From NCBI GenBank assembly GCA_963675665.1, contig OY776510.1, positions 427,815 to 491,814 of the forward strand: DNA of 64,000 nt. The letters are read 5' to 3'. Numbering within the stretch: the stretch's first letter is position 1; every line of letters starts with the position of its first letter. Of this stretch, positions 1,385 to 51,782 are shown piece after piece. The stretch comes from Spirochaetia bacterium (GTDB lineage Bacteria > Spirochaetota > Spirochaetia > UBA9216). A program made the translations under genes and the position numbers. The notes under the pieces are model-generated. The model ran no database searches, was not told the DNA's origin, and worked only from the letters and a program-made list of their open reading frames with translations.

Positions 1385-2564
1385 GGGCGGTAAGATACGG
1401 AAGCGCCACAAAGGTTCCGATACTGCTGCCTATGCTTGAAAAAAGAAAAACCAACAGGACTTTCGTCAGCCTGTTCCGGTAAAACCCGCGAAAACTTGTT
1501 ATATCGGTATTAAGGTTTTCCAGGTCTTCCACCCGGGGTTTTCTCACCCAGGACTGAATCAGGCCGGTGACAATTCCGACGCCTATAGTCGGGTTCATTG
1601 ACGTAAACGGTGCCGCTGCAAATGATATTATAACGGTAAGCGGATGGGCCAGCGCAATAATAGCGCCGATTGCGGCAAGGGTTCCATTTGCAAGAATCCA
1701 TACTAGCAGCATTTCAACACCTTCTCGTGCTCCATTACGGATAAAACCCGAGGCAATCAGAGCAACAACTGCTACAGTAATTAACCACGGAAGCTTTCCT
1801 ACCCATTTGCTGCCCTTTGGAACCACGGATACATCTTCAAGGTTGGCGGTTTTCTCTTCTTTATCAAGAGCTTCCAGCCACATTACTATTCCGTTCATAT
1901 GCCCCGCCCCTACTACGGCAACTACCTTATCTTCTTTCTCCAGAAAAATATTTGTTGCAAGGTACTGATCACGTTCGTCTATAAATACTTCCTTAACCGC
2001 CGGAAGGTAATCGGCAAGTTCGTCCATCATTGTCTGCAGGGCTGATTTCTGCTTCAGGCTTTCAAGCTCTTCCTCGGAAAGCTTTTCATTTGTAAAGGCA
2101 GATCCTATCAGGGCCCCAAGCATTTTCATCTTCTGAAAAAAGCCCGATTTTGACCAGGCGCGCCGAAGCGTAGTCTGGATATCGCGGTCGGAATAAGAAT
2201 AAGGAATACCAAGTTCGTCACACACATCGGCAGCAATCATCATCTCCTGCCCCTGGGTGGTACCTACATCCATACCCAGGCGCCTCTGATAGGCCGACAA
2301 CACCAGGCTTGCAATCATCAGAAACGCCTGGCCGTTTTTCAGAACTTGTCCTATATTCAGTTTGCTCCAGTCCTGCCCCTCGCGCATCTGCTTAAAACGG
2401 CCGGCATCGATTTCAATACAGACCCTGCCGGGCTGTTCTGTACGTATAATGCTTTCAACCTGGTCTACACTCTCTTTGGAAATATGTGCCGTTCCAACCA
2501 GAATAATCTCACGGCCGTTCAATTTTATTCGGCGTACCGTATCGTTTTCCGTTTTCTCATTCAT
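1371..2564 (-). CDS. TraB/GumN family protein (pheromone-shutdown-like), with C-terminal membrane segment
   Basis: GTAHISKESV and GAGHM motifs typical of the TraB family. Hydrophobic C-terminus. Start placed at MNEKTEND (ATG at 2562-2564). Confidence 0.7.
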   Translation of the reverse strand: MNEKTENDTVRRIKLNGREIILVGTAHISKESVDQVESIIRTEQPGRVCIEIDAGRFKQMREGQDWSKLNIGQVLKNGQAFLMIASLVLSAYQRRLGMDVGTTQGQEMMIAADVCDELGIPYSYSDRDIQTTLRRAWSKSGFFQKMKMLGALIGSAFTNEKLSEEELESLKQKSALQTMMDELADYLPAVKEVFIDERDQYLATNIFLEKEDKVVAVVGAGHMNGIVMWLEALDKEEKTANLEDVSVVPKGSKWVGKLPWLITVAVVALIASGFIRNGAREGVEMLLVWILANGTLAAIGAIIALAHPLTVIISFAAAPFTSMNPTIGVGIVTGLIQSWVRKPRVEDLENLNTDITSFRGFYRNRLTKVLLVFLFSSIGSSIGTFVALPYLTALIAG

Positions 2565-3963
2565 AATGATTCTCCAACTCGTAATCAGCCATCCTGCTCT
2601 CATAATAACCGAGATTACCGGCATCCCGTACCGTCACCAGGTAGGAATAAGCAGCTGTTTCCATTCCATTTTCGTGATAAAGCTCTGCTATATAAAAAAG
2701 AAGTCTTTTTTGGAGATTTTTATCTTCCTCTTCCTGAATCTTCCTCAGAGCATATGCATCATAGCCGCTTTCCCTGAAAGAACGGATAATATGATAATAT
2801 ATGTTTCCGGACGGGATTTTATCCATCGCCGCGGCGTAATATTCCTGGGTTTCTTTCCATTCAGCCTTCTGTTTCATCATGGCCAGGGCCGCAGTAACAA
2901 GATATCCGTATTCCTGCGGTTCATATTCAAAGGCTGATTCAAATGAAGCTTTGCAGCCTTCCCAGTTGCCAAGCATAAACTGTACTGTTCCGAGCGCCGA
3001 ATAGGCAAAATAATAATCCGGCTTCTGGTCAATTACCAGTTTGTAATCTTCAGCCGCAAGTTCATATTCATCCATTTCATCATAAATCCCGGCCCTGAAC
3101 ACGTAGGGATAGAAAACAGCCGGGTTTATTTCTATCGCCCGGTTAAAATCCTCAAGGGCGCCGCTGCGATCTCCCAGATCGCGGATTCGCAAGCGTCCCC
3201 TGTCCAGATAATGCCAGAAGTAATCGGGTTCAAGCCTGATAGCTTCGCTCATATCGCTTTCTGCTCCCTGAAAGTCGCCGATAGCCGCCCTTGCGCTGCT
3301 GCGGTCCAGGTATGTAAAAGGGTTTTCCGGATCAAGTTCAACAGCCCTGTTCAGATGCCCTTCAGCTTCCTGATATTTTTCTTCTCTAATCAGCGCGCTG
3401 CCTAAACCGGTAAGCGCAATAATGTTGTCCGGGTCAGATTCCAGCGCCCGCTTAAACATTTCAGAGGACTTTTTTAACTCTGATTCGGAAAGATAAATGC
3501 TGCCGAGAACCGACAAGGCCTGAGAATGCCCGGGGTCAACGGCTATTGCCTTTTCAAGCATTTCGAATTCGGCTTCTTCGTCTCCTGCCAGCCCTTCCAC
3601 CAGGGCAAGATTAAAATAAGCGTCCGCATTCATCGGTTCCCGTTCAATCAGCGCACGAAGCTCGTCCCCGGCCTTTTTATAATCACCGGAAGCCATAAGC
3701 AGTCCGGCATAGGCTATTACGGTTTCCGAACTGTCGTTTTTTACTTTCGCAAACTCTTTGACTGCCGAGTCCGTATCGCCCGAGTTTATCATTTTCTCAA
3801 TATTTTCATATGTTTCAGCTTCTTTTTGGGGTCTTTTAACGGTTGAAGCCGGTTTTTCCGGCGATGCAGTTTCTGGGCTTTTCTCCACAGTTGTGCATGA
3901 GGAAATCATACTGAATAGCAGGATTAAAACTGCCGGGACTGCTGCTGCGGTTTTAAGCTTCAT
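2557..3963 (-). CDS. TPR-repeat lipoprotein
   Basis: Signal peptide with lipobox (LLFSMISSC) when started at MKLKTAAAV (3963). Many 34-aa TPR-like repeats. Overlaps the TraB start by 8 nt. Confidence 0.7.
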   Translation of the reverse strand: MKLKTAAAVPAVLILLFSMISSCTTVEKSPETASPEKPASTVKRPQKEAETYENIEKMINSGDTDSAVKEFAKVKNDSSETVIAYAGLLMASGDYKKAGDELRALIEREPMNADAYFNLALVEGLAGDEEAEFEMLEKAIAVDPGHSQALSVLGSIYLSESELKKSSEMFKRALESDPDNIIALTGLGSALIREEKYQEAEGHLNRAVELDPENPFTYLDRSSARAAIGDFQGAESDMSEAIRLEPDYFWHYLDRGRLRIRDLGDRSGALEDFNRAIEINPAVFYPYVFRAGIYDEMDEYELAAEDYKLVIDQKPDYYFAYSALGTVQFMLGNWEGCKASFESAFEYEPQEYGYLVTAALAMMKQKAEWKETQEYYAAAMDKIPSGNIYYHIIRSFRESGYDAYALRKIQEEEDKNLQKRLLFYIAELYHENGMETAAYSYLVTVRDAGNLGYYESRMADYELENHYE

Positions 3964-4006
3964 ACTACCCCCTGAAACTATAAATATATATGAATTCGAA
4001 CTATTG

Positions 4007-5185
4007 TTAAAGCCTTGGCGCTGCCTGAGGCCTGACCGTCCCAACATCTGTTTTAAGCAGATACGCAAGCACCAACGTACCCAGTAAAAGCGGAACCGTA
4101 AAAACATAAAGGGCCTGCCGGTAACCGAAAGCATCAATCACCATGCCGAACAAAGCCGGACTCAGGGCTGACGTTACCGTAATAACGCCCATCAGGATCC
4201 CGAAGATTTCTCCCTTGCCGAAACCCGAGCTCAGCCTTGAGATAAGCAGGTTCTGATTAATGACACATCCTGAGCTGAAAGCGCCGAAAAGAGTTATTAC
4301 AATAATATAAACCCAGATGGGAAGGGTCCCGGACAGAATAAGCATTGTAACACCTGTGAATATTGTTCCGATCATGATAATTGCATAAGAATTATATTTT
4401 TCAGACAGTTTTCCGGCAATTATCGAACCGGTTATTCCCCCGCCGAAGAAAAAAGCAGTTGCATATGATGCAGATCCTTCTTCCATACCGAAGAAATGAA
4501 CAAAAATGGTCGGCAGAAAACTCAGCAGTGCAGAAACAGCAACAATACGAAGTATTACGGTAATCAGAAAAATCACAAGCCTTTTCAGATCGCGCGGTTC
4601 TTTCTGCGGGATTGATTCAGAAGACTGTCCCTGCCGCTTTTTTTGTCCCGGAGCGTTTCCAATTGTATCGGTTAACAGGTATACCGTACCCATTATAACC
4701 GCAGGCACAGCAGTTACCATAAGAACACCCCGGATCCCGATGCGACTGATAAGATAACCGTTTATCAAAAACATCAGCAGAATGGCTGATGTGCCGCAAC
4801 ATTCGTAGTACCCCATAATACTGCTTTTATTATCGGTGTAGGTTTCATCTATAACTGCATACATCACCGGATGAAACGTACTCATCCCTATGGCCGTGAT
4901 CGAAATTAAAAGAATAAACACAGACAGATTGGGGGCAAAACCCGACGCTATTAATCCTGCGGCGGCCAGATAAAAACCGTAGCTTAGAATTTTTTTTCTT
5001 GTTATCCTGTCGGATATTTTTCCCAAAGTAATCGATCCGACAGCTGTAAAAAGAAGATAAACCGTAAGGATGCCTCCGGCTTCCGAATAATTTAGCTGAT
5101 ACCGTGTAAGCAGTGAAGGCAGTACAAGCGGCAGAATAAACCAGAACAGGTCATTGGCACTATGCCCGAGAAGTTTCAATTTCAT
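4007..5185 (-). CDS. MFS transporter
   Basis: About 12 predicted TM helices. Basic loop motif GKISDRITRKK typical of MFS loop 2-3. Confidence 0.75.
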   Translation of the reverse strand: MKLKLLGHSANDLFWFILPLVLPSLLTRYQLNYSEAGGILTVYLLFTAVGSITLGKISDRITRKKILSYGFYLAAAGLIASGFAPNLSVFILLISITAIGMSTFHPVMYAVIDETYTDNKSSIMGYYECCGTSAILLMFLINGYLISRIGIRGVLMVTAVPAVIMGTVYLLTDTIGNAPGQKKRQGQSSESIPQKEPRDLKRLVIFLITVILRIVAVSALLSFLPTIFVHFFGMEEGSASYATAFFFGGGITGSIIAGKLSEKYNSYAIIMIGTIFTGVTMLILSGTLPIWVYIIVITLFGAFSSGCVINQNLLISRLSSGFGKGEIFGILMGVITVTSALSPALFGMVIDAFGYRQALYVFTVPLLLGTLVLAYLLKTDVGTVRPQAAPRL

Positions 5186-5202: not shown

Positions 5203-6696
5203 TTAAAGAATGAGCATCAAGACTGCAAAGCTGAGAAAAAGCAGGCCGGTAAGAATTTTGATTATCCCCAGGTTGGTTTGAAATATTCCGGTAATCTTTT
5301 TGGATGTAATCCCCAGATATACGACAATGAAGACTACAGCCAGAGGAATAATAAATGCAAGATTATACAATGCAAGGTAAAAATAACCCGAAGCAGCTTT
5401 ATCAGTCTGAATAATATAAGTAATAGTCGGAAAGTAGATCTGCCCTGTACAACCCAGTTCAAATATCGATATCAGAAAGCCCATAACAATTGAACTTCCG
5501 GCAAGAGCCGCTGATTTCGTATAGGACCTTATAGAATCATGCATCCGCCGTTTTACAGAATCCGGAAGCTGTAAAATTATATCTTTTGTCTTTCCAGAGC
5601 GAATTTTCCCGTAATCATAAAAACTCAACCCCGCAAAGACAACAAGAACAGCAAAAAGAACCCACCTTATTATCCGGCTTACCAGCTCAAACGAATCGGC
5701 AATTCTTATAATTTTGAAAAATCCCAGCCCTATCAGATAATAGGTTATAAATACCGTTACCGTAAAAAACAGTCCGATAATCAGTGTCTCGCGCCGGCTT
5801 CTTCCGGCAACACTCAGCGCGCTTAATAAAAATATCAAGGTCGTAAAAGCACAGGGGTTTACTCCGTCCAGCAATCCGGCGGCAAGAACCGCAGCCAGAG
5901 ACATGCTTATTCCATCAGATTTATTTCCCTTGCTTTCATTTTCTCCGGACGCGCCTGTATCCCGGCCGGAGTCGCCGGCCAGCAGCGCGGTATAACCTGC
6001 CATGACGGCTTCTTCACCCTGATAAATATCCTCTGTCGTAACAAAAACCGGGATCTCTTTTAACGATGTTCCGCGGTCGGCAAACAGCTGCTGCAGTTCT
6101 TCATAATACTCAGCTTCTGTTATATCCCGCTTGTCAATATTAATTTCGGCATCACGGAGAAACCGGTTGCAGCTCTTGCAGCCCGGGGTATAGTAATAAC
6201 GGGGAATCTCTGTTGTCCCTTCCCCGGACATAATACCCGCGGAAGATTCCGGTTCAGCCGGCATTGTCGAATCATCCGCTGCATCTGCAGATACCGACGA
6301 AACATCCACACTGCCTGTAACTACAAAAAAGCCCTTGGGCATTGCATCTGAATTGGTCTGAATTATAAGCAGTTTTTCGAAGTCGCCGGAATCGTCATGG
6401 CTGTCAAAAACAATTGTAAATTCCGCCGATTCTCCGGCGGATATATCAAGGCTTTCAGGATAAGTTGTCATACAGCTGCAGGTACTGATTAAATCAACTG
6501 TAACATTTTCCGTAGTGTTGTTGGTAATTTTAACCGGCTGTTCAACAACATCCCCGTACTCAATCGAGCCTGTATTCCAGTCGGTTATGCTGAATTCGAG
6601 ATTGCCGCCGTCATCCTGGGCTGCAGCCGAAAATAAAACCAGAAAGGAAAAAGCAAGAGTTATAAATAATCTGTTCAGTCTGTTAATTTTTTCCAT
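5203..6696 (-). CDS. Periplasmic DUF1573-like domain + CxxC module fused to CcdA/DsbD-type thiol-disulfide transmembrane domain
   Basis: Signal peptide. Beta-sandwich-like N-domain with CSCM. YYYTPGCKSCNRF (CxxC). C-terminal TM core with conserved Cys in TM1 (VNPCAFTTL) and TM4 (ELGCTGQ), as in CcdA/DsbD-beta. Confidence 0.6.
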   Translation of the reverse strand: MEKINRLNRLFITLAFSFLVLFSAAAQDDGGNLEFSITDWNTGSIEYGDVVEQPVKITNNTTENVTVDLISTCSCMTTYPESLDISAGESAEFTIVFDSHDDSGDFEKLLIIQTNSDAMPKGFFVVTGSVDVSSVSADAADDSTMPAEPESSAGIMSGEGTTEIPRYYYTPGCKSCNRFLRDAEINIDKRDITEAEYYEELQQLFADRGTSLKEIPVFVTTEDIYQGEEAVMAGYTALLAGDSGRDTGASGENESKGNKSDGISMSLAAVLAAGLLDGVNPCAFTTLIFLLSALSVAGRSRRETLIIGLFFTVTVFITYYLIGLGFFKIIRIADSFELVSRIIRWVLFAVLVVFAGLSFYDYGKIRSGKTKDIILQLPDSVKRRMHDSIRSYTKSAALAGSSIVMGFLISIFELGCTGQIYFPTITYIIQTDKAASGYFYLALYNLAFIIPLAVVFIVVYLGITSKKITGIFQTNLGIIKILTGLLFLSFAVLMLIL

Positions 6697-46481: not shown

Positions 46482-47588
46482 ATGAAGGAGAAAGAAATGG
46501 CAAAAGGATTTTCACTTGAAACGTACCCATGGGCATATCTTGCGCAATACGATAAAGAAACTGAATGGCGTGAGGAATACATCGAAAATCCGCATAAAAC
46601 CCCGAAGGAAGAAGCGGACCTTCCCGCCGATGAGTTTGCGGCACTGCTTCAGAAGAGAAATTCGTTTCCCGGGCTTCCGCTTGTTAATTATACAACACAA
46701 TACGGCATGGGCTGCTTTGAAGGCCTAAAGGCATATCCGCAAAAGGACGGCTCTCTAAAATTATTCCGACCGGATGAAAATGCCGCCAGGATGTTTAAAT
46801 CAATGAAGGGATTGATGATGCCTCCATTCCCGGAAAAAATGTTTCTTGAAGCATCAAAAACCGTAGTTAAAAAGAATATGGCCTGCGGCTTTGCGCCTGA
46901 ATATGATTCGGAGTGGGAAAAGGATAATTATATTACTGGACATGCAGTGTACCTGAGACCGTTTACGTATTCGGAACCGGCGATAGGCCTGGGCGTATCA
47001 AATCGTCCATGGGTAGTAATTGTTGCAACACCTGTCGGAGCATATTTCGCGCCGGGGAATTCCAAAGCCGTCGTCACAGATAAAGCCAGAGCAACTCCCA
47101 ACGGCACAGGCTGGATAAAATGCAATGCGAATTATGTTATTCCCATTCTTGCAAAGAAAGAAGCAGTAAACGCCGGATATATGGAAGCTATTTTTCTTGA
47201 TTCCGTTGAAAAAAAATATGTTGAAGAAGGTTCATCATGCAACATATTTTTCAAACTAAAAGACGGCACACTGATTACTCCGGAGCTCGGCGATACAATA
47301 CTGCCCGGAATAAACAGAAAGAGCGTAATAGAACTTGCCGGGGATATGGGAACAAAAGTCGAAGAAAGAAAAGTCCCCATTGCGGAGGTTATGGAAAAAG
47401 CTGACGAATGCTTTGTTACCGGAACAGCCGCAGGAGTTTCATATATCGAATCCATCACTTTAAAGGGAAAAACCCTAGTCCTCAACAAAGGTGTACAGGG
47501 AGAACTCACGACTGAACTTCAAAAAACGCTTAAAAAGATACAGTACGGAGCTATAGAAGACACAAAAGGATGGATGTTCGGACTTTAA
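46482..47588 (+). CDS. ilvE: Branched-chain amino acid aminotransferase (class IV, fold type IV PLP)
   Basis: Class IV aminotransferase motifs (YGMGCFEGLKAY, …GTAAGVS…). 368 aa, long-form BCAT. Confidence 0.8.
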   Translation: MKEKEMAKGFSLETYPWAYLAQYDKETEWREEYIENPHKTPKEEADLPADEFAALLQKRNSFPGLPLVNYTTQYGMGCFEGLKAYPQKDGSLKLFRPDENAARMFKSMKGLMMPPFPEKMFLEASKTVVKKNMACGFAPEYDSEWEKDNYITGHAVYLRPFTYSEPAIGLGVSNRPWVVIVATPVGAYFAPGNSKAVVTDKARATPNGTGWIKCNANYVIPILAKKEAVNAGYMEAIFLDSVEKKYVEEGSSCNIFFKLKDGTLITPELGDTILPGINRKSVIELAGDMGTKVEERKVPIAEVMEKADECFVTGTAAGVSYIESITLKGKTLVLNKGVQGELTTELQKTLKKIQYGAIEDTKGWMFGL

Positions 47589-47592
47589 GACT

Positions 47593-50500
47593 TTACAAAC
47601 TCAGCCTTGAAAGGTCCTTGGGAATATCCTGATATATCTGCAGCCGGTAATCTTCGACCGGATAAAATACCGCCCGTGAATTCAAATATGAAAGATTAAC
47701 CGTATCCGGCTCTACAAGCGAGTTCGGATCACGGGAAAGTTTATCGTAATATTCAACCGAATCGGTAAGAAGCACCATTGCTTCCGCATTTTTTTCCGGT
47801 TCACGGCTTCTCTCATACAGACGGTATTTGGTAACTCCCAGGTTATTGCTTACCTTCATCATATTCTCAAGCAGGGCCCGATGCTCCGGAATCTCATCAA
47901 TAAGCAGGTAATTAATTGACGAATATTCTTTACTGAGCAAATCAAGAAGATGTGTATAGTATCCCTCAGCAAGATAATAATCGTTTCGGTTGAACAGAGT
48001 ATTGGCTGTTGAGTACATCAAAGCCCTGTCTACGGAAAACCCGCCGGCTGTATCATAAAACTCGATCAAAGCCTCTCTATAATTCTTGTTATAATACTGT
48101 ATATAACCTTTTTTGTATTTCAATATCTCGGAAGAATATTCATTCAGTTCGGCTTTGGTATAATACTCAAGCGCCAGGTCATAATCTCCGCTGATATAAT
48201 ACGATAAATCTCCCAGGTTGGAAAAAATCATGCCGAATTCAGGTTTCGGCTGTATCTGCCTGTTGGCTATTGCTTCATCATACCGTTCGGCCGCTTTCTG
48301 ATAAAACTCTTCGGCATCCAGATAATTCTCCTGTTCATACAGGATCATCCCTTTACGGTTATACGAATCGATCAGTAAACCGTTTCGGGTGCGGGTCAGC
48401 GGGTCTGTATTTTCAAAAAGCCAGATTGCTGCATTAAGCGCTTTCTCTTCCTCTTCCGGAATGTTGATAATACCAAAATAACGGGCAAGTTCATAATGTA
48501 TTTCCGGAAGTTCCGCCTCTACAGAACGTGCTTTCATCAGGATCTCTCTTACATCCTCAAAACGGCCGCTGTCAATCAGATATCCTGCCAGTTCGGCATA
48601 AATGTCCGGCTCAATATCCGCTTTCGCATTCTGTTTAAAAGCATCATAAAGATTCATTGCTTCAGTATGGTTATCTGTTCTGATAAAATACCGCAACATT
48701 CTGAACAGAATCTCATCTCTGCCGCCGTACAGTTCAAGCAGCTTGGCATAATTAAATCTTGCCTCTTCATATCGTGATGGATCAATTTCCCTTGCCCATT
48801 CCATATAGGTATCACCGAGCATCAGACGGGCTTCATAATCATTAAGGTGATCAAAAAGTAAATCAGTTAAAAGCTTTTCAGCTTCCGGATACTTGCCTAG
48901 AATCTTAAATTCCAGTTCGGCATAATCCAGCACAGCCTCGCGTTCATCCGGGTACCAGCCGAGCAGCTGCTCGTATTTTTCTTCGGCAAGAAGATATTGT
49001 TTATTATCTTCAAATGATTCTGCATATCTGTAAAACCAGTTTTTCTTTTTCCATTCACTGAATGCACGTTCGAAATATGAGTTGGCCTGTTCGTTGTTTC
49101 CCTGCGGAATTTCTTCATAGCCTTTTTTATATAGCGATTCAGCGTGCAGAGGGGTATATACAAACCGATACCCTAAAAACAATAATAGCATCAGGGAAGC
49201 CGCTGCTATCAATGCTGTTCTGAACATCGGTATAAAGTTTTTTCTGAACATATAGCTGAAGGAACTCTTTTCTTTCTCGAATTCCTCAGCGGTGCGCTTT
49301 TCATACTGCGCCGGGATTTTTACCTTCTTTCCGGTTATTTTCGATACGACATTCCCAATTTCTCTTGCGCTGGAACCGGAAGTCATCGCCTCAATGAGTT
49401 TATCCAGATTTTCACCGGTAAGCCGCTTTTCTCCTATCAGCTCCTCAATTATGAGCTTGAGATTCCGAGGCATTTGACCAAGAGTCTTTTTAAGTTCTAT
49501 AAACTCATCATCGGGAATGGCGTAACTTTCATCGGAATACGCATCGTCAAAATCACCGCTTTCATCCGCAGAAGGAACATCAAGACTTTCAAGATGCCCC
49601 ATGTCTTCAGCAGGTTCTTCATCTACTCCGAATTCCTGCCCCAGATCTCCGAGACTGAACTCTGAAGCTTCAATATCATCGCCGTCTATCTCTCCTAGAC
49701 TGAAATCTTCAAGACTGAATTCATCCTCTCCGGAGTCATCGGAACTTTCCATATCGGAGCCGAAGTCGCCGACCTCGGATTCACCGAGTTCATCCATGTC
49801 GGTGTCGAAGCCGGCCGTGTCGAGCTCACCGGCATCAGGTTCGCCCAGGTCATCCATGTCGGCGTCGAATTCGCCGGTGTCGAAGTCAGCCGTGTCCAGC
49901 TCTCCGAGGTCATCCATGTCGGTGTCGAAACCGGCCGTGTCGAGTTCACCGGCATCAGGTTCGCTCAGATCATCCATGTCGGCTTCGAATTCGCCGGTAT
50001 CGAAGTCAGCCGTGTCCAGCTCTCCGAGGTCATCCATGTCTGTGTCGAAGCCGGTCGTGTCTATCTCACCGGCATCAGGTTCGCCCAGGTCATCCATATC
50101 GGCGTCGAATTCGCCGGTGTCGAAGTCAGCCGTGTCCAGCTCTCCGAGGTCATCCATGTCGGTGTCGAAGCCGGTCGTGTCGAGCTCACCGGCATCAGGT
50201 TCGCCCAGGTCATCCATGTCGGCTTCGAATTCGCCGGTATCGAAGTCGGCCGTGTCCAGCTCTCCGAGGTCATCCATGTCTGTGTCGAAACCGGCCGTGT
50301 CGAGTTCACCGGCATCAGGTTCGCCCAGGTCATCCATGTCGGCGTCGAATTCGCCGGTATCGAAGTCAGCCGTGTCGAGTTCATCAGCATCAGGTTCGCC
50401 CAGGTCATCCATGTCGACGTCAAAATCGCCGGTATCGAAGCCGGTCGTGTCTATCTCACCGGCATCAGGTTCGCCCAGGTCATCCATGTCGGCTTCGAAT

Positions 50501-50940
50501 TCGCCGGTATCGAAGCCGGTCGTGTCGAGTTCATCGGCATCAGTAATCTCTTCACCAGAACTTTCAAGATCAAACGAATCAAGATCCGCATCGAAACCTT
50601 CCGCTTCCAGGGCATCCATCTCTTCGAATTGATCCCCGGAAGAGGATTCTTCTGCAAGCTCTTCGTCGAGCCCCGAAAGTAATTCTTCAGGAAGATTATA
50701 ATCGCCCTCAAATTCATCCGGTTCAGCTTCTGAATCTGTCGGCTCCTCGGCAAAAAGGGATGATTCTTCCAGAACATCTGTATCATCCTCATCGAAAAGC
50801 GCACTCAAATCTCCGATCGATTCAGCTTCAGGCGGAGTAATATCCGGCATAACTTCACCGCGCTGTCTGCGTATCTCCTCTTCGTTGCCGAGACGAGTCA
50901 GATCTGTCTTAAAATCGTCTATTTCTTGAATCTGGGGCAT
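47593..50940 (-). CDS. Large membrane protein: N-terminal acidic repeat region, single TM helix, C-terminal TPR domain
   Basis: About 270 aa of near-identical 20/40-aa repeats (DMDDLGEPDAGELDTAGFDT / DMDDLGELDTADFDTGEFEA). TM helix IAAASLMLLLFLGYRFV. About 560 aa of TPR-like repeats. Confidence 0.7.
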   Translation of the reverse strand: MPQIQEIDDFKTDLTRLGNEEEIRRQRGEVMPDITPPEAESIGDLSALFDEDDTDVLEESSLFAEEPTDSEAEPDEFEGDYNLPEELLSGLDEELAEESSSGDQFEEMDALEAEGFDADLDSFDLESSGEEITDADELDTTGFDTGEFEADMDDLGEPDAGEIDTTGFDTGDFDVDMDDLGEPDADELDTADFDTGEFDADMDDLGEPDAGELDTAGFDTDMDDLGELDTADFDTGEFEADMDDLGEPDAGELDTTGFDTDMDDLGELDTADFDTGEFDADMDDLGEPDAGEIDTTGFDTDMDDLGELDTADFDTGEFEADMDDLSEPDAGELDTAGFDTDMDDLGELDTADFDTGEFDADMDDLGEPDAGELDTAGFDTDMDELGESEVGDFGSDMESSDDSGEDEFSLEDFSLGEIDGDDIEASEFSLGDLGQEFGVDEEPAEDMGHLESLDVPSADESGDFDDAYSDESYAIPDDEFIELKKTLGQMPRNLKLIIEELIGEKRLTGENLDKLIEAMTSGSSAREIGNVVSKITGKKVKIPAQYEKRTAEEFEKEKSSFSYMFRKNFIPMFRTALIAAASLMLLLFLGYRFVYTPLHAESLYKKGYEEIPQGNNEQANSYFERAFSEWKKKNWFYRYAESFEDNKQYLLAEEKYEQLLGWYPDEREAVLDYAELEFKILGKYPEAEKLLTDLLFDHLNDYEARLMLGDTYMEWAREIDPSRYEEARFNYAKLLELYGGRDEILFRMLRYFIRTDNHTEAMNLYDAFKQNAKADIEPDIYAELAGYLIDSGRFEDVREILMKARSVEAELPEIHYELARYFGIINIPEEEEKALNAAIWLFENTDPLTRTRNGLLIDSYNRKGMILYEQENYLDAEEFYQKAAERYDEAIANRQIQPKPEFGMIFSNLGDLSYYISGDYDLALEYYTKAELNEYSSEILKYKKGYIQYYNKNYREALIEFYDTAGGFSVDRALMYSTANTLFNRNDYYLAEGYYTHLLDLLSKEYSSINYLLIDEIPEHRALLENMMKVSNNLGVTKYRLYERSREPEKNAEAMVLLTDSVEYYDKLSRDPNSLVEPDTVNLSYLNSRAVFYPVEDYRLQIYQDIPKDLSRLSL
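49780..50560. repeat. Tandem DNA repeat, 120-bp period (two related 60-bp sub-units), about 6.5 copies, >90% identical
   Basis: The sequence catccatgtcgg(c/t)gtcgaa…ggttcgcccaggt recurs every 60/120 bp. Encodes the acidic repeats of the 1115-aa protein. Confidence 0.85.
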
Positions 50941-51038: not shown

Positions 51039-51782
51039 ATGAGCGCACAAAACCGAAATTATAATAGAACCATGTATAACATACGTAAAAAAACACAGTC
51101 AATATTATTTTTTCTCCTGCTGCTTCCTGTAACCGCGTTGTTTGCTGATCCTGTAACTGTTCAGCTACATTTTGCCATAACAGAAGCTGTAGTCGCTTCG
51201 CCGCCTGAAGTTATTGATGATCATCTTGTACTTTCATATAAAGGCAGCAGACATTACCGATTTGTCGGAGCTGCTTTCAAACATGAAGATTTCAAGATTA
51301 TCCATCCTTTCTATGTTAATACAAACGGAGTTTATGTTCTTACCTATCCGCTGGAAGAAGGTATAAGCGAACTGGAATACCGGCTTGTTGTTGACGGTTT
51401 ATGGATGACCGATCCGAATAATCAGAATACGATAACAGATTTAAGCGGACTTTCACTTTCAAGCTACATGATCCCGGAAAAAGAAGGGCCTCCGGAATCG
51501 CCTAAACATACAGATAAATCTGTGACCTTTCGTTACCTCGGGGCCCGCGGTCAGAAAGTATTTGTATACGGAGATTTCAACAACTGGGATCCTTATATGT
51601 ACAGGCTTGCGGAAGAACCGGGTACAGGTTTATACAGTTGCAAACTGCGTTTAAGTCCGGGGACTTACAAATATAAATATATTGTAGACGGAACAGCCAT
51701 GCCGGATCCACTTAATGAAGAAAAATCTCTTGACACCTTCGGAGAGACTGCCTCTGTTTTTACTGTACCGTTTGAATTCTAA
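51039..51782 (+). CDS. Secreted protein with two CBM48/AMPK-beta glycogen-binding-like (E-set) domains
   Basis: Signal peptide. Two copies of the pattern V.F.Y.G…V.V.GDFNNW…Y.Y..DG. Confidence 0.5.
   Translation: MSAQNRNYNRTMYNIRKKTQSILFFLLLLPVTALFADPVTVQLHFAITEAVVASPPEVIDDHLVLSYKGSRHYRFVGAAFKHEDFKIIHPFYVNTNGVYVLTYPLEEGISELEYRLVVDGLWMTDPNNQNTITDLSGLSLSSYMIPEKEGPPESPKHTDKSVTFRYLGARGQKVFVYGDFNNWDPYMYRLAEEPGTGLYSCKLRLSPGTYKYKYIVDGTAMPDPLNEEKSLDTFGETASVFTVPFEF

Follow-up and report, generated by a model that had tools for sequence, protein, structure and literature searches.

The gene at positions 47593-50940 (minus strand) of a 64,000-nucleotide stretch of contig OY776510.1 from a Spirochaetia bacterium, the whole of which is referred to here as the window, almost certainly encodes the counterpart by descent (orthologue) of FlcA, a periplasmic protein of the spirochaete flagellar collar that is known in Borrelia as BB0326; this identification rests on sequence comparison. 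The protein, of 1115 amino acids (aa), carries ahead of its single transmembrane (TM) helix a long acidic tail, predicted to be disordered, which is conserved in kind over about 230 homologues and in which repeats have turned over even between genomes of 97% nucleotide identity. The best overall explanation, and a likely one, is an FlcA orthologue whose acidic tail is selected for its bulk properties as a spacer or brush and has recently acquired a tandem repeat array. The FlcA family itself is already known.

Two FlcA-specific models of NCBIfam match the protein. The model FlcA_CTERM (NF047371) scored 662.2 bits against a cutoff of 300 and aligned aa 480-1110 with model positions 2-646 of 646, and over aa 1-38 the model FlcA_NTERM (NF047372) reached 51.1 bits, its cutoff being 28. 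When the last 636 aa served as query, 193 homologues were retrieved, all of them from spirochaetes; most were unnamed or described as tetratricopeptide repeat (TPR) proteins, and several were named FlcA. In a collection of 1.84 billion proteins, 382 cluster representatives matched the FlcA-specific part that lies outside the TPRs (aa 415-600) at E<=1e-3. The named homologues and loci all belonged to Spirochaetales, Spirochaetia, Marispirochaeta, Sediminispirochaeta or Treponema. The homologue search did not return the window protein or its close sister, described below, and its negatives are not exhaustive. By sequence search, solved structures gave only designed or generic TPRs. As far as they can be tested in sequence, the defining features of FlcA are all present in the window protein.

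The collar's peripheral “turbine” in Borrelia burgdorferi is made up of FlcA (BB0326, 931 aa) (PMC11750108, PMC8609358, PMC7693769). Its TM helix and its C-terminal TPR domain, which is periplasmic, could be fitted to 16 S-shaped collar densities (PMC11750108), and the protein binds MotB and FliL, thereby stabilising the stator ring (PMC11750108, PMC8609358). When FlcA is lost, the stators disappear and motility is abolished (PMC11750108, PMC8609358, PMC7693769). The published Borrelia constructs comprise an N-terminal part (aa 2-328) and a C-terminal part (aa 360-931). Like the Borrelia protein, the window protein has a single TM helix between its N-terminal region and a TPR domain of about 550 aa at the C-terminus, and its TPRs would be expected to form peripheral collar blades that bind MotB and FliL. 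Unlike it, the window protein has 1115 instead of 931 aa, with a pre-TM region of about 565 aa. Its near-perfect 262-aa repeat array is common only to one sister genome among the homologues fetched. The published FlcA work that was searched treats the periplasmic TPR half, and no discussion of the N-terminal half was found in it.

The open reading frame (ORF) of flcA opens with an ATG, a start that is backed by homology: the sequence MPQIQEIDDFK... fits positions 1-38 of the FlcA N-terminal model and the family-wide start MPxLxDIExFK. These first 38 residues (50827-50940, minus strand, as for all parts of the gene) are a conserved motif kept in nearly all full-length homologues, and they are predicted to form a helical hairpin with helices at aa 4-17 and 20-27. 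The polyacidic tail (aa 39-479; 49504-50826) comes next. Between it and the membrane stands a conserved juxtamembrane helical domain (aa 474-558; 49267-49521), which combines four short helices with the basic stretch KITGKKVKIP..YEKR. The single TM helix (aa 566-590; 49171-49245) leads into a TPR solenoid of about 525 aa (aa 591-1115; 47596-49170), which would be periplasmic by homology to Borrelia FlcA. In a Pfam scan only TPR families matched, and all of these matches fell within the C-terminal half of the protein.

An AlphaFold2 model was built with an alignment of 85 sequences. It shows an all-helical TPR solenoid at aa 616-1092 with a predicted local distance difference test (pLDDT) score above 90, a long helix (aa 561-610) of which the TM segment is a part, the four-helix juxtamembrane domain at aa 477-536 (pLDDT 82-87, and above 90 in a sub-model) and the N-terminal hairpin at aa 4-27 (pLDDT about 80). 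Between these confident flanking domains, aa 39-473 are left without structure, at a pLDDT below 50. An initial annotation of this DNA had described a 1115-aa protein with a near-perfect acidic repeat array, one TM helix and a TPR domain, and had predicted disorder for the repeat segment. The ORF, the repeat finder, the hydrophobicity profile and Pfam confirm the former, and the low pLDDT agrees with the latter. It was also right that the TM helix comes after the array and the TPR part after the TM helix. However, the helix does not follow directly, as about 170 aa, the conserved four-helix domain among them, separate it from the array, and the TPR part extends over about 525 aa (aa 591-1115) rather than 560.

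With a 19-residue Kyte-Doolittle mean, the protein has one hydrophobic segment, with a peak of 2.06 at aa 576, and the profile never exceeds 0.6 elsewhere. The sequence was examined for a signal peptide and a lipobox, and neither is present. Within 30 aa of the TM helix, lysine and arginine (K+R) number 8 on the N-terminal side and 3 on the C-terminal side, in keeping with an N-terminus inside. Since the protein has a single TM helix and the TPR domain is periplasmic in Borrelia, the first 565 aa should be cytoplasmic. The acidic repeats and the TPR scaffold thus lie on opposite sides of the one hydrophobic segment, as had been proposed at the outset.

From this architecture the initial annotation had drawn a comparison with HubP of Vibrio and FimV of Pseudomonas, single-pass proteins with a long, acidic, repeat-rich cytoplasmic region that are tied to the placement of flagella and chemotaxis proteins (PMC12918733). 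On this account the window protein would be a polar landmark that recruits cytoplasmic clients through its acidic repeats. The TM helix, the single-pass layout and the extensive acidic repeat region, on what is probably the cytoplasmic side, are indeed shared, as a resemblance only. However, HubP and FimV carry a LysM domain in the periplasm and end in a FimV/TPR domain in the cytoplasm, whereas in the window protein the periplasmic part is a TPR solenoid, across the membrane from the acidic tract, and that tract is N-terminal. No Pfam match to LysM was found in the protein at E<=1, no match to the FimV family was found in NCBIfam or Pfam, and both FlcA-specific models match strongly. A landmark of the HubP/FimV type is therefore very improbable, and the protein is taken here as an FlcA orthologue.

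The composition of the tail is extreme. Within aa 39-479 (441 aa) there are 183 aspartate and glutamate residues (D/E) and not one lysine or arginine, a net charge of about -183, which bears out the extremely negative charge noted earlier. The general layout recurs in the family, as counted over about 230 homologues, of which about 100 are close representatives and about 130 lie further away. Nearly all full-length members show the MPxLxDIExFK start, or in looser form MPxxxxIxxF, and an acidic pre-TM region, followed by a single TM helix and some 550 further residues, and one FlcA from Treponema has the same layout as the window protein. The pre-TM region in these homologues measures 350-890 aa, with 20-43% D/E and a net charge of -50 to -271. 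Where the variable tract could be delimited, in 29 relatives, it covers 237-377 aa with 26-54% D/E (median 45%) and a median K/R content of 0; the tract of the window protein is the longest of this comparison. A long pre-TM tail that is polyacidic, poor in K/R and predicted to be disordered is, on these sequence comparisons, a family trait, and the repeat array within it is specific to the lineage.

Alignment of the pre-TM regions shows four conserved islands, and the sequence between them cannot be aligned among relatives. The islands are aa 1-50, a motif of the form [FYW]x[LIMVF]P[DE], an EFSLxD pair at aa 407-434 and the juxtamembrane region at aa 474-565. The second island is weaker and is represented here by YNLPEEL (aa 81-87; 50680-50700), a copy of a recurrent short motif of the type aromatic-x-hydrophobic-proline-acidic; in the closest homologues it takes the form DDFxLPEGLTEGL. 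Of 203 homologues, 69 contain a motif of this type; of 203 shuffled sequences, 1 does. For the double motif EFSLEDFS ... EFSLGDLG(QEFGV), which is conserved at aa 407-434 (49639-49722), the corresponding counts are 133 and 2 of 203.

The tandem array occupies aa 134-395 (49756-50541) and stands out in the repeat finder, the protein anatomy, the self-similarity and the base composition, with a GC content of 0.60 against 0.446 for the window. Tandem Repeats Finder reported a period of 120 nucleotides (nt) at 49784-50376 (4.9 copies, 93% matches, score 1053) and a second period of 75 nt at 50285-50543 (3.5 copies). In protein terms, the array begins with a partial lead-in unit (aa 134-150), which is followed by two full 25-aa (75-nt) units of the ancestral type (aa 151-200; 50341-50490). 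Next come 4.5 copies of a 40-aa (120-nt) A+B super-repeat (aa 201-380; 49801-50340), that is, nine alternating 20-aa units with A = DMDDLGEPDAGELDTAGFDT and B = DMDDLGELDTADFDTGEFEA. The array closes with a single degenerate unit (aa 381-395), and the total is 12 DM[DE][DE]L units plus the lead-in. This is close to the 13 units first counted; the 6.5 super-repeats given with them were too many, the correct number being 4.5-4.9. Each of the A and B units corresponds to the 75-nt unit minus 15 nt, with a different 15 nt missing in A and in B. Pairwise comparison of the four complete 120-nt copies shows 5-11 mismatches per 120 nt, about half of them synonymous. The repeat goes far beyond what chance would give, with a self-similarity score of 128, whereas shuffles that preserve composition never exceed 5. 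We infer that the DMDDLGEPDAGELDT... array arose by recent in-frame expansion within the acidic tract, through unequal recombination or replication slippage. Because all unit lengths are multiples of 3 nt, changes in the array alter only the length of the tract and never switch the gene on or off.

The array also contains overlapping reading frames: a Ser/Pro-rich ORF of 343 aa runs antisense to it (49601-50632, plus strand), and shorter minus-strand ORFs lie in other frames, for example at 50061-50423 and 50451-50804. None of these is a gene; they merely read the array in mirror image or in a shifted frame, and they could mislead automatic gene callers.

The repeat unit is rare among relatives. 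It occurs in more than one copy only in the window protein and one sister among the 337 proteins fetched, and the DMDDL unit is not found in the 12 listed homologues that come closest, with C-terminal domains of 70-81% identity, several of which bear different repeats of their own. About 20 of 97 homologues have internal repeats that exceed twice the shuffle maximum, and the window protein has by far the strongest score, 128, the runner-up reaching 57. In metagenome contigs, 0 matches were obtained with a degenerate DNA pattern for DMDDLGEPDAGE. The search with the repeat alone gave no match either; it is uninformative, since it also missed the window protein and its sister (P0336, P0337), both known to be present.

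One alternative is that the repeats are functional elements, each DMDDLGE..FDT unit binding a basic cytoplasmic partner or divalent cations, with the number of units tuning avidity or cation buffering at the motor. The electrostatic tether or cation sink suggested in the initial annotation belongs here. Such a role might be suggested by the phenylalanines, which are regularly spaced in their acidic context (gaps of 5, 15 and 20), and by the recurrence of acidic-aromatic short motifs in the family, far above shuffled expectation. However, the unit is absent from all of the other roughly 250 homologues fetched, including relatives at 70-81% identity, so that a conserved partner cannot depend on its sequence. 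EF-hand (PROSITE PS00018) and DxDxDG patterns gave no regular-expression match anywhere in the protein, and the Pfam scan returned no EF-hand and no domain of any kind on the repeat units. EF-hand or DxDxDG calcium loops in DMDDLGEPDAGE are accordingly ruled out, with zero pattern matches. Functional repeat units are thus quite unlikely, and the comparison with the sister genome bears on them from both sides, as described next.

Scans that used FlcA itself, covering homologues as well as genome and metagenome contigs, found nothing closer than 76-81% identity; the best contig matches to its C-terminal domain were 76-79% identical. A much closer sister genome was found through the gene next to flcA. 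At this sister locus (L014), on a contig of 5.38 Mb, nucleotide identity with the window is 97.2% over 16 kb, and FlcA has 1122 aa in comparison with 1115 in the window. The flanks of the array are about 99% identical: the first 133 aa show 4 differences, and the 735 aa after the array show 7 aa differences and 17 of 2208 nt. Between these flanks the array has been reorganised. With F25 denoting the 25-aa unit, the window array reads F25 F25 (A B)x4 A and the sister array A B F25 F25 A B F25 A B F25, each followed by the degenerate unit, and the lead-in is different. The overall properties remain close, with lengths of 247 and 254 aa, 105 and 102 D+E and no K+R in either array (window and sister, respectively). 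A similar picture emerges in other species, where every length difference within four clusters of near-identical FlcA variants (about 98-99.9%) is an in-frame indel inside the acidic tract. For example, a 5-aa EEPV[SV] unit accounts for proteins of 926, 931 and 936 aa.

The array is therefore very probably strain-variable, as the initial annotation had expected, and tolerated as a bulk polyanion; the changed unit order in a genome of 97% identity supports the expectation directly. As to functional repeat units, the sister keeps the array, though reorganised, with a similar number of units (11 against 12), which would fit a role for unit number, whereas the order and type of the units differ between the two genomes. 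The same data bear on a further alternative, in which neutral filler makes up the array and perhaps all of the tract, a tolerant linker that gathers slippage products without selection on charge or length. The unalignable sequence of the tract, the wide variation in pre-TM length in the family (350 to 890 aa) and the indels among near-identical variants would all be expected of such filler. On the other hand, K/R are wholly absent over 441 aa in the window as well as in the sister genome, relatives have almost none, and an unconstrained tract would be unlikely to stay so. In addition, array length and charge have been preserved in the sister despite the reorganisation, and the tract is present in essentially every full-length homologue, out to Treponema. 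Neutral filler is thus unlikely. The evidence favours selection on bulk properties, that is, on disorder, charge, exclusion of K/R and a roughly kept length, with no conservation of sequence.

The sister genome is equally relevant to the question of whether the array is genuine. An assembly artefact, raised as a possibility at the outset, is unlikely, because the two versions stand on contigs of 5.15 and 5.38 Mb and the copies are non-identical; two independent contigs of more than 5 Mb thus bear in-frame arrays of similar length. A kinship with the spirochaetal repeat proteins used for strain typing had also been suggested. In Treponema pallidum, Arp (TP0433) and TP0470 carry in-frame repeats of 60 and 24 nt, respectively, with strain-variable copy number; both are predicted to be periplasmic, with signal peptides, and Arp has a C-terminal SPOR domain, while TP0470 combines an N-terminal TPR with a C-terminal mixed-charge EAEEARRK repeat helix (PMC9531955). 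The window protein shares with them its origin in a spirochaete and its in-frame tandem repeats, one of its unit lengths, 60 nt, recalls the arp repeats, and TP0470 likewise combines TPRs with a charged repeat that varies (PMC9531955). Yet the SPOR domain of Arp (no Pfam match) and the signal peptide, N-terminal TPR and C-terminal EAEEARRK helix of TP0470 are all missing from it; in comparison with TP0470 the domain order is reversed, and the repeat is purely acidic and predicted to be disordered. It is thus scarcely credible that the protein is an Arp- or TP0470-like periplasmic or antigenic repeat protein or that the array is an artefact of assembly, and the suggested kinship is not upheld. 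The initial annotation had further named, as a finding that would speak against it, homologues without the repeats together with a routine TPR lipoprotein. Relatives do lack the array, but the protein is not a lipoprotein, as no lipobox is present. The idea that TP0470 might itself be the FlcA of T. pallidum was rejected on its signal peptide, N-terminal TPR and C-terminal EAEEARRK repeat (PMC9531955).

For the FlcA orthologue with a bulk-selected tail, the following arrangement is proposed. As in Borrelia, the periplasmic TPR half would serve as a membrane-anchored blade on the collar's periphery, held by the single TM helix, and would hold the FliL-MotAB stator units. The cytoplasmic part would comprise the N-terminal hairpin, the polyanionic disordered tract of about 440 aa, the acidic-aromatic short motifs and the helical juxtamembrane domain. 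The polyanionic tract would act as a flexible spacer or brush under selection for length and charge, its sequence being free to drift, and would tether the hairpin and the short motifs by the cytoplasmic face of the motor; expansion of the array would add to its length through in-frame repeat turnover. The chances of this spacer, brush or tether role are put somewhat below even. By simple arithmetic, each tail would have a contour length of about 160 nm, and with 16 copies per motor, as in Borrelia, the tails would contribute about -2900 charges. A bolder proposal, and a rather doubtful one, is that the K/R-free tail is a selected and so far undescribed motor module. In it, some 16 brushes of about -180 each would lie beneath the stator ring and present the hairpin and motifs to a cytoplasmic partner, with their length kept constant through rapid turnover, and a CBM48-like protein encoded next to flcA would be a possible collar component.

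Several points weigh against this interpretation. The function of FlcA in this organism would be a transfer by homology from Borrelia, and no flagellar genes were found among the neighbouring and larger ORFs of the window that were scanned against Pfam and NCBIfam. The positive-inside signal around the TM helix, K+R 8 against 3, is modest. According to a 2026 preprint (10.64898/2026.05.29.728556), aa 2-328 of Borrelia FlcA were recovered in pull-downs with FlcE, a periplasmic lipoprotein, which misfits a cytoplasmic N-terminal region unless the binding is an electrostatic effect in vitro. The survey of acidic tails in about 230 homologues was made without Borrelia FlcA aa 2-328. The proposed spacer or brush role is drawn from patterns of composition and conservation, no evidence points to a partner of the N-terminal hairpin or of the short motifs, and the structure search with the juxtamembrane domain gave no informative match.

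The best match of the FlcA model among solved structures was the TPR domain of LIC11990 from Leptospira interrogans (PDB 8ebf; Foldseek E = 1.5e-10, TM-score 0.50 on the target). Both proteins have a large TPR solenoid from a spirochaete, C-terminal in LIC11990; however, identity to FlcA aa 591-1115 is only 13%, which makes this a match at the level of fold only, and no sequence link was detected by phmmer or by the family profile. LIC11990 may thus represent FlcA in Leptospira, judging by the modelled fold. In other complex motors, periplasmic TPR scaffolds such as Campylobacter PflB hold stators at a wide radius. FlcA resembles these as a membrane-anchored periplasmic TPR protein at the motor periphery, by functional analogy and with no claim of homology, and to our knowledge no polyacidic cytoplasmic tail is known in scaffolds of the PflB type.

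The surroundings of the gene were also described. A scan for promoters and terminators around flcA gave nothing above background, and by eye no sigma-28-like site was seen. Divergent to flcA and 98 bp from it stands a gene for a 247-aa CBM48/AMPK1_CBM-like protein (51039-51782, plus strand; Pfam), which is not part of FlcA and has an N-terminal hydrophobic segment that by eye resembles a signal peptide. The divergent pairing is conserved: it was seen at L001, L003, L004, L005, L008, L011, L012, L014 and L015/L016, next to FlcA genes of 41-81% identity, and on a contig of Treponema sp., where FlcA scored 694 bits. The CBM48-like protein may be a functional partner of FlcA or an unrecognised component of the collar. 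On the other side, an ilvE-type branched-chain aminotransferase gene (46482-47588, plus strand) converges on flcA and ends 4 bp from its stop codon. This arrangement persists at L006, L007 and L011-L013, where FlcA is only 38-46% identical, and it is an unusually deep microsynteny for two functionally unrelated genes.

Further out, a transposase gene of the IS110 family (44249-45361, minus strand) lies between the gene for a single-stranded DNA-binding protein (SSB) and a gene for a small secreted protein; it is missing from the same position in relatives L001, L003, L005 and L008. The alignment with the sister genome ends at window position 45784, with different genes left of SSB in the sister, and this end marks a rearrangement breakpoint. 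A second multi-TPR protein (526 aa) is encoded near a DUF1573/Ig-like protein, the two genes lying at 2557-4137 and 5203-6696, respectively, both on the minus strand. Beyond the window, the distant homologue P0120 (829 aa; L013, 5001-7490) is preceded by an ORF of 263 aa at 4235-5026 that overlaps the flcA start by 26 nt, and this ORF may be the N-terminal acidic region of that FlcA, split off by a frameshift or a sequencing error.

The assignment to FlcA is useful mainly for annotation, because most public homologues are labelled “TPR protein” or “hypothetical”, and the array offers a natural length-polymorphism marker for this uncultured lineage. [quoted passage not shown]

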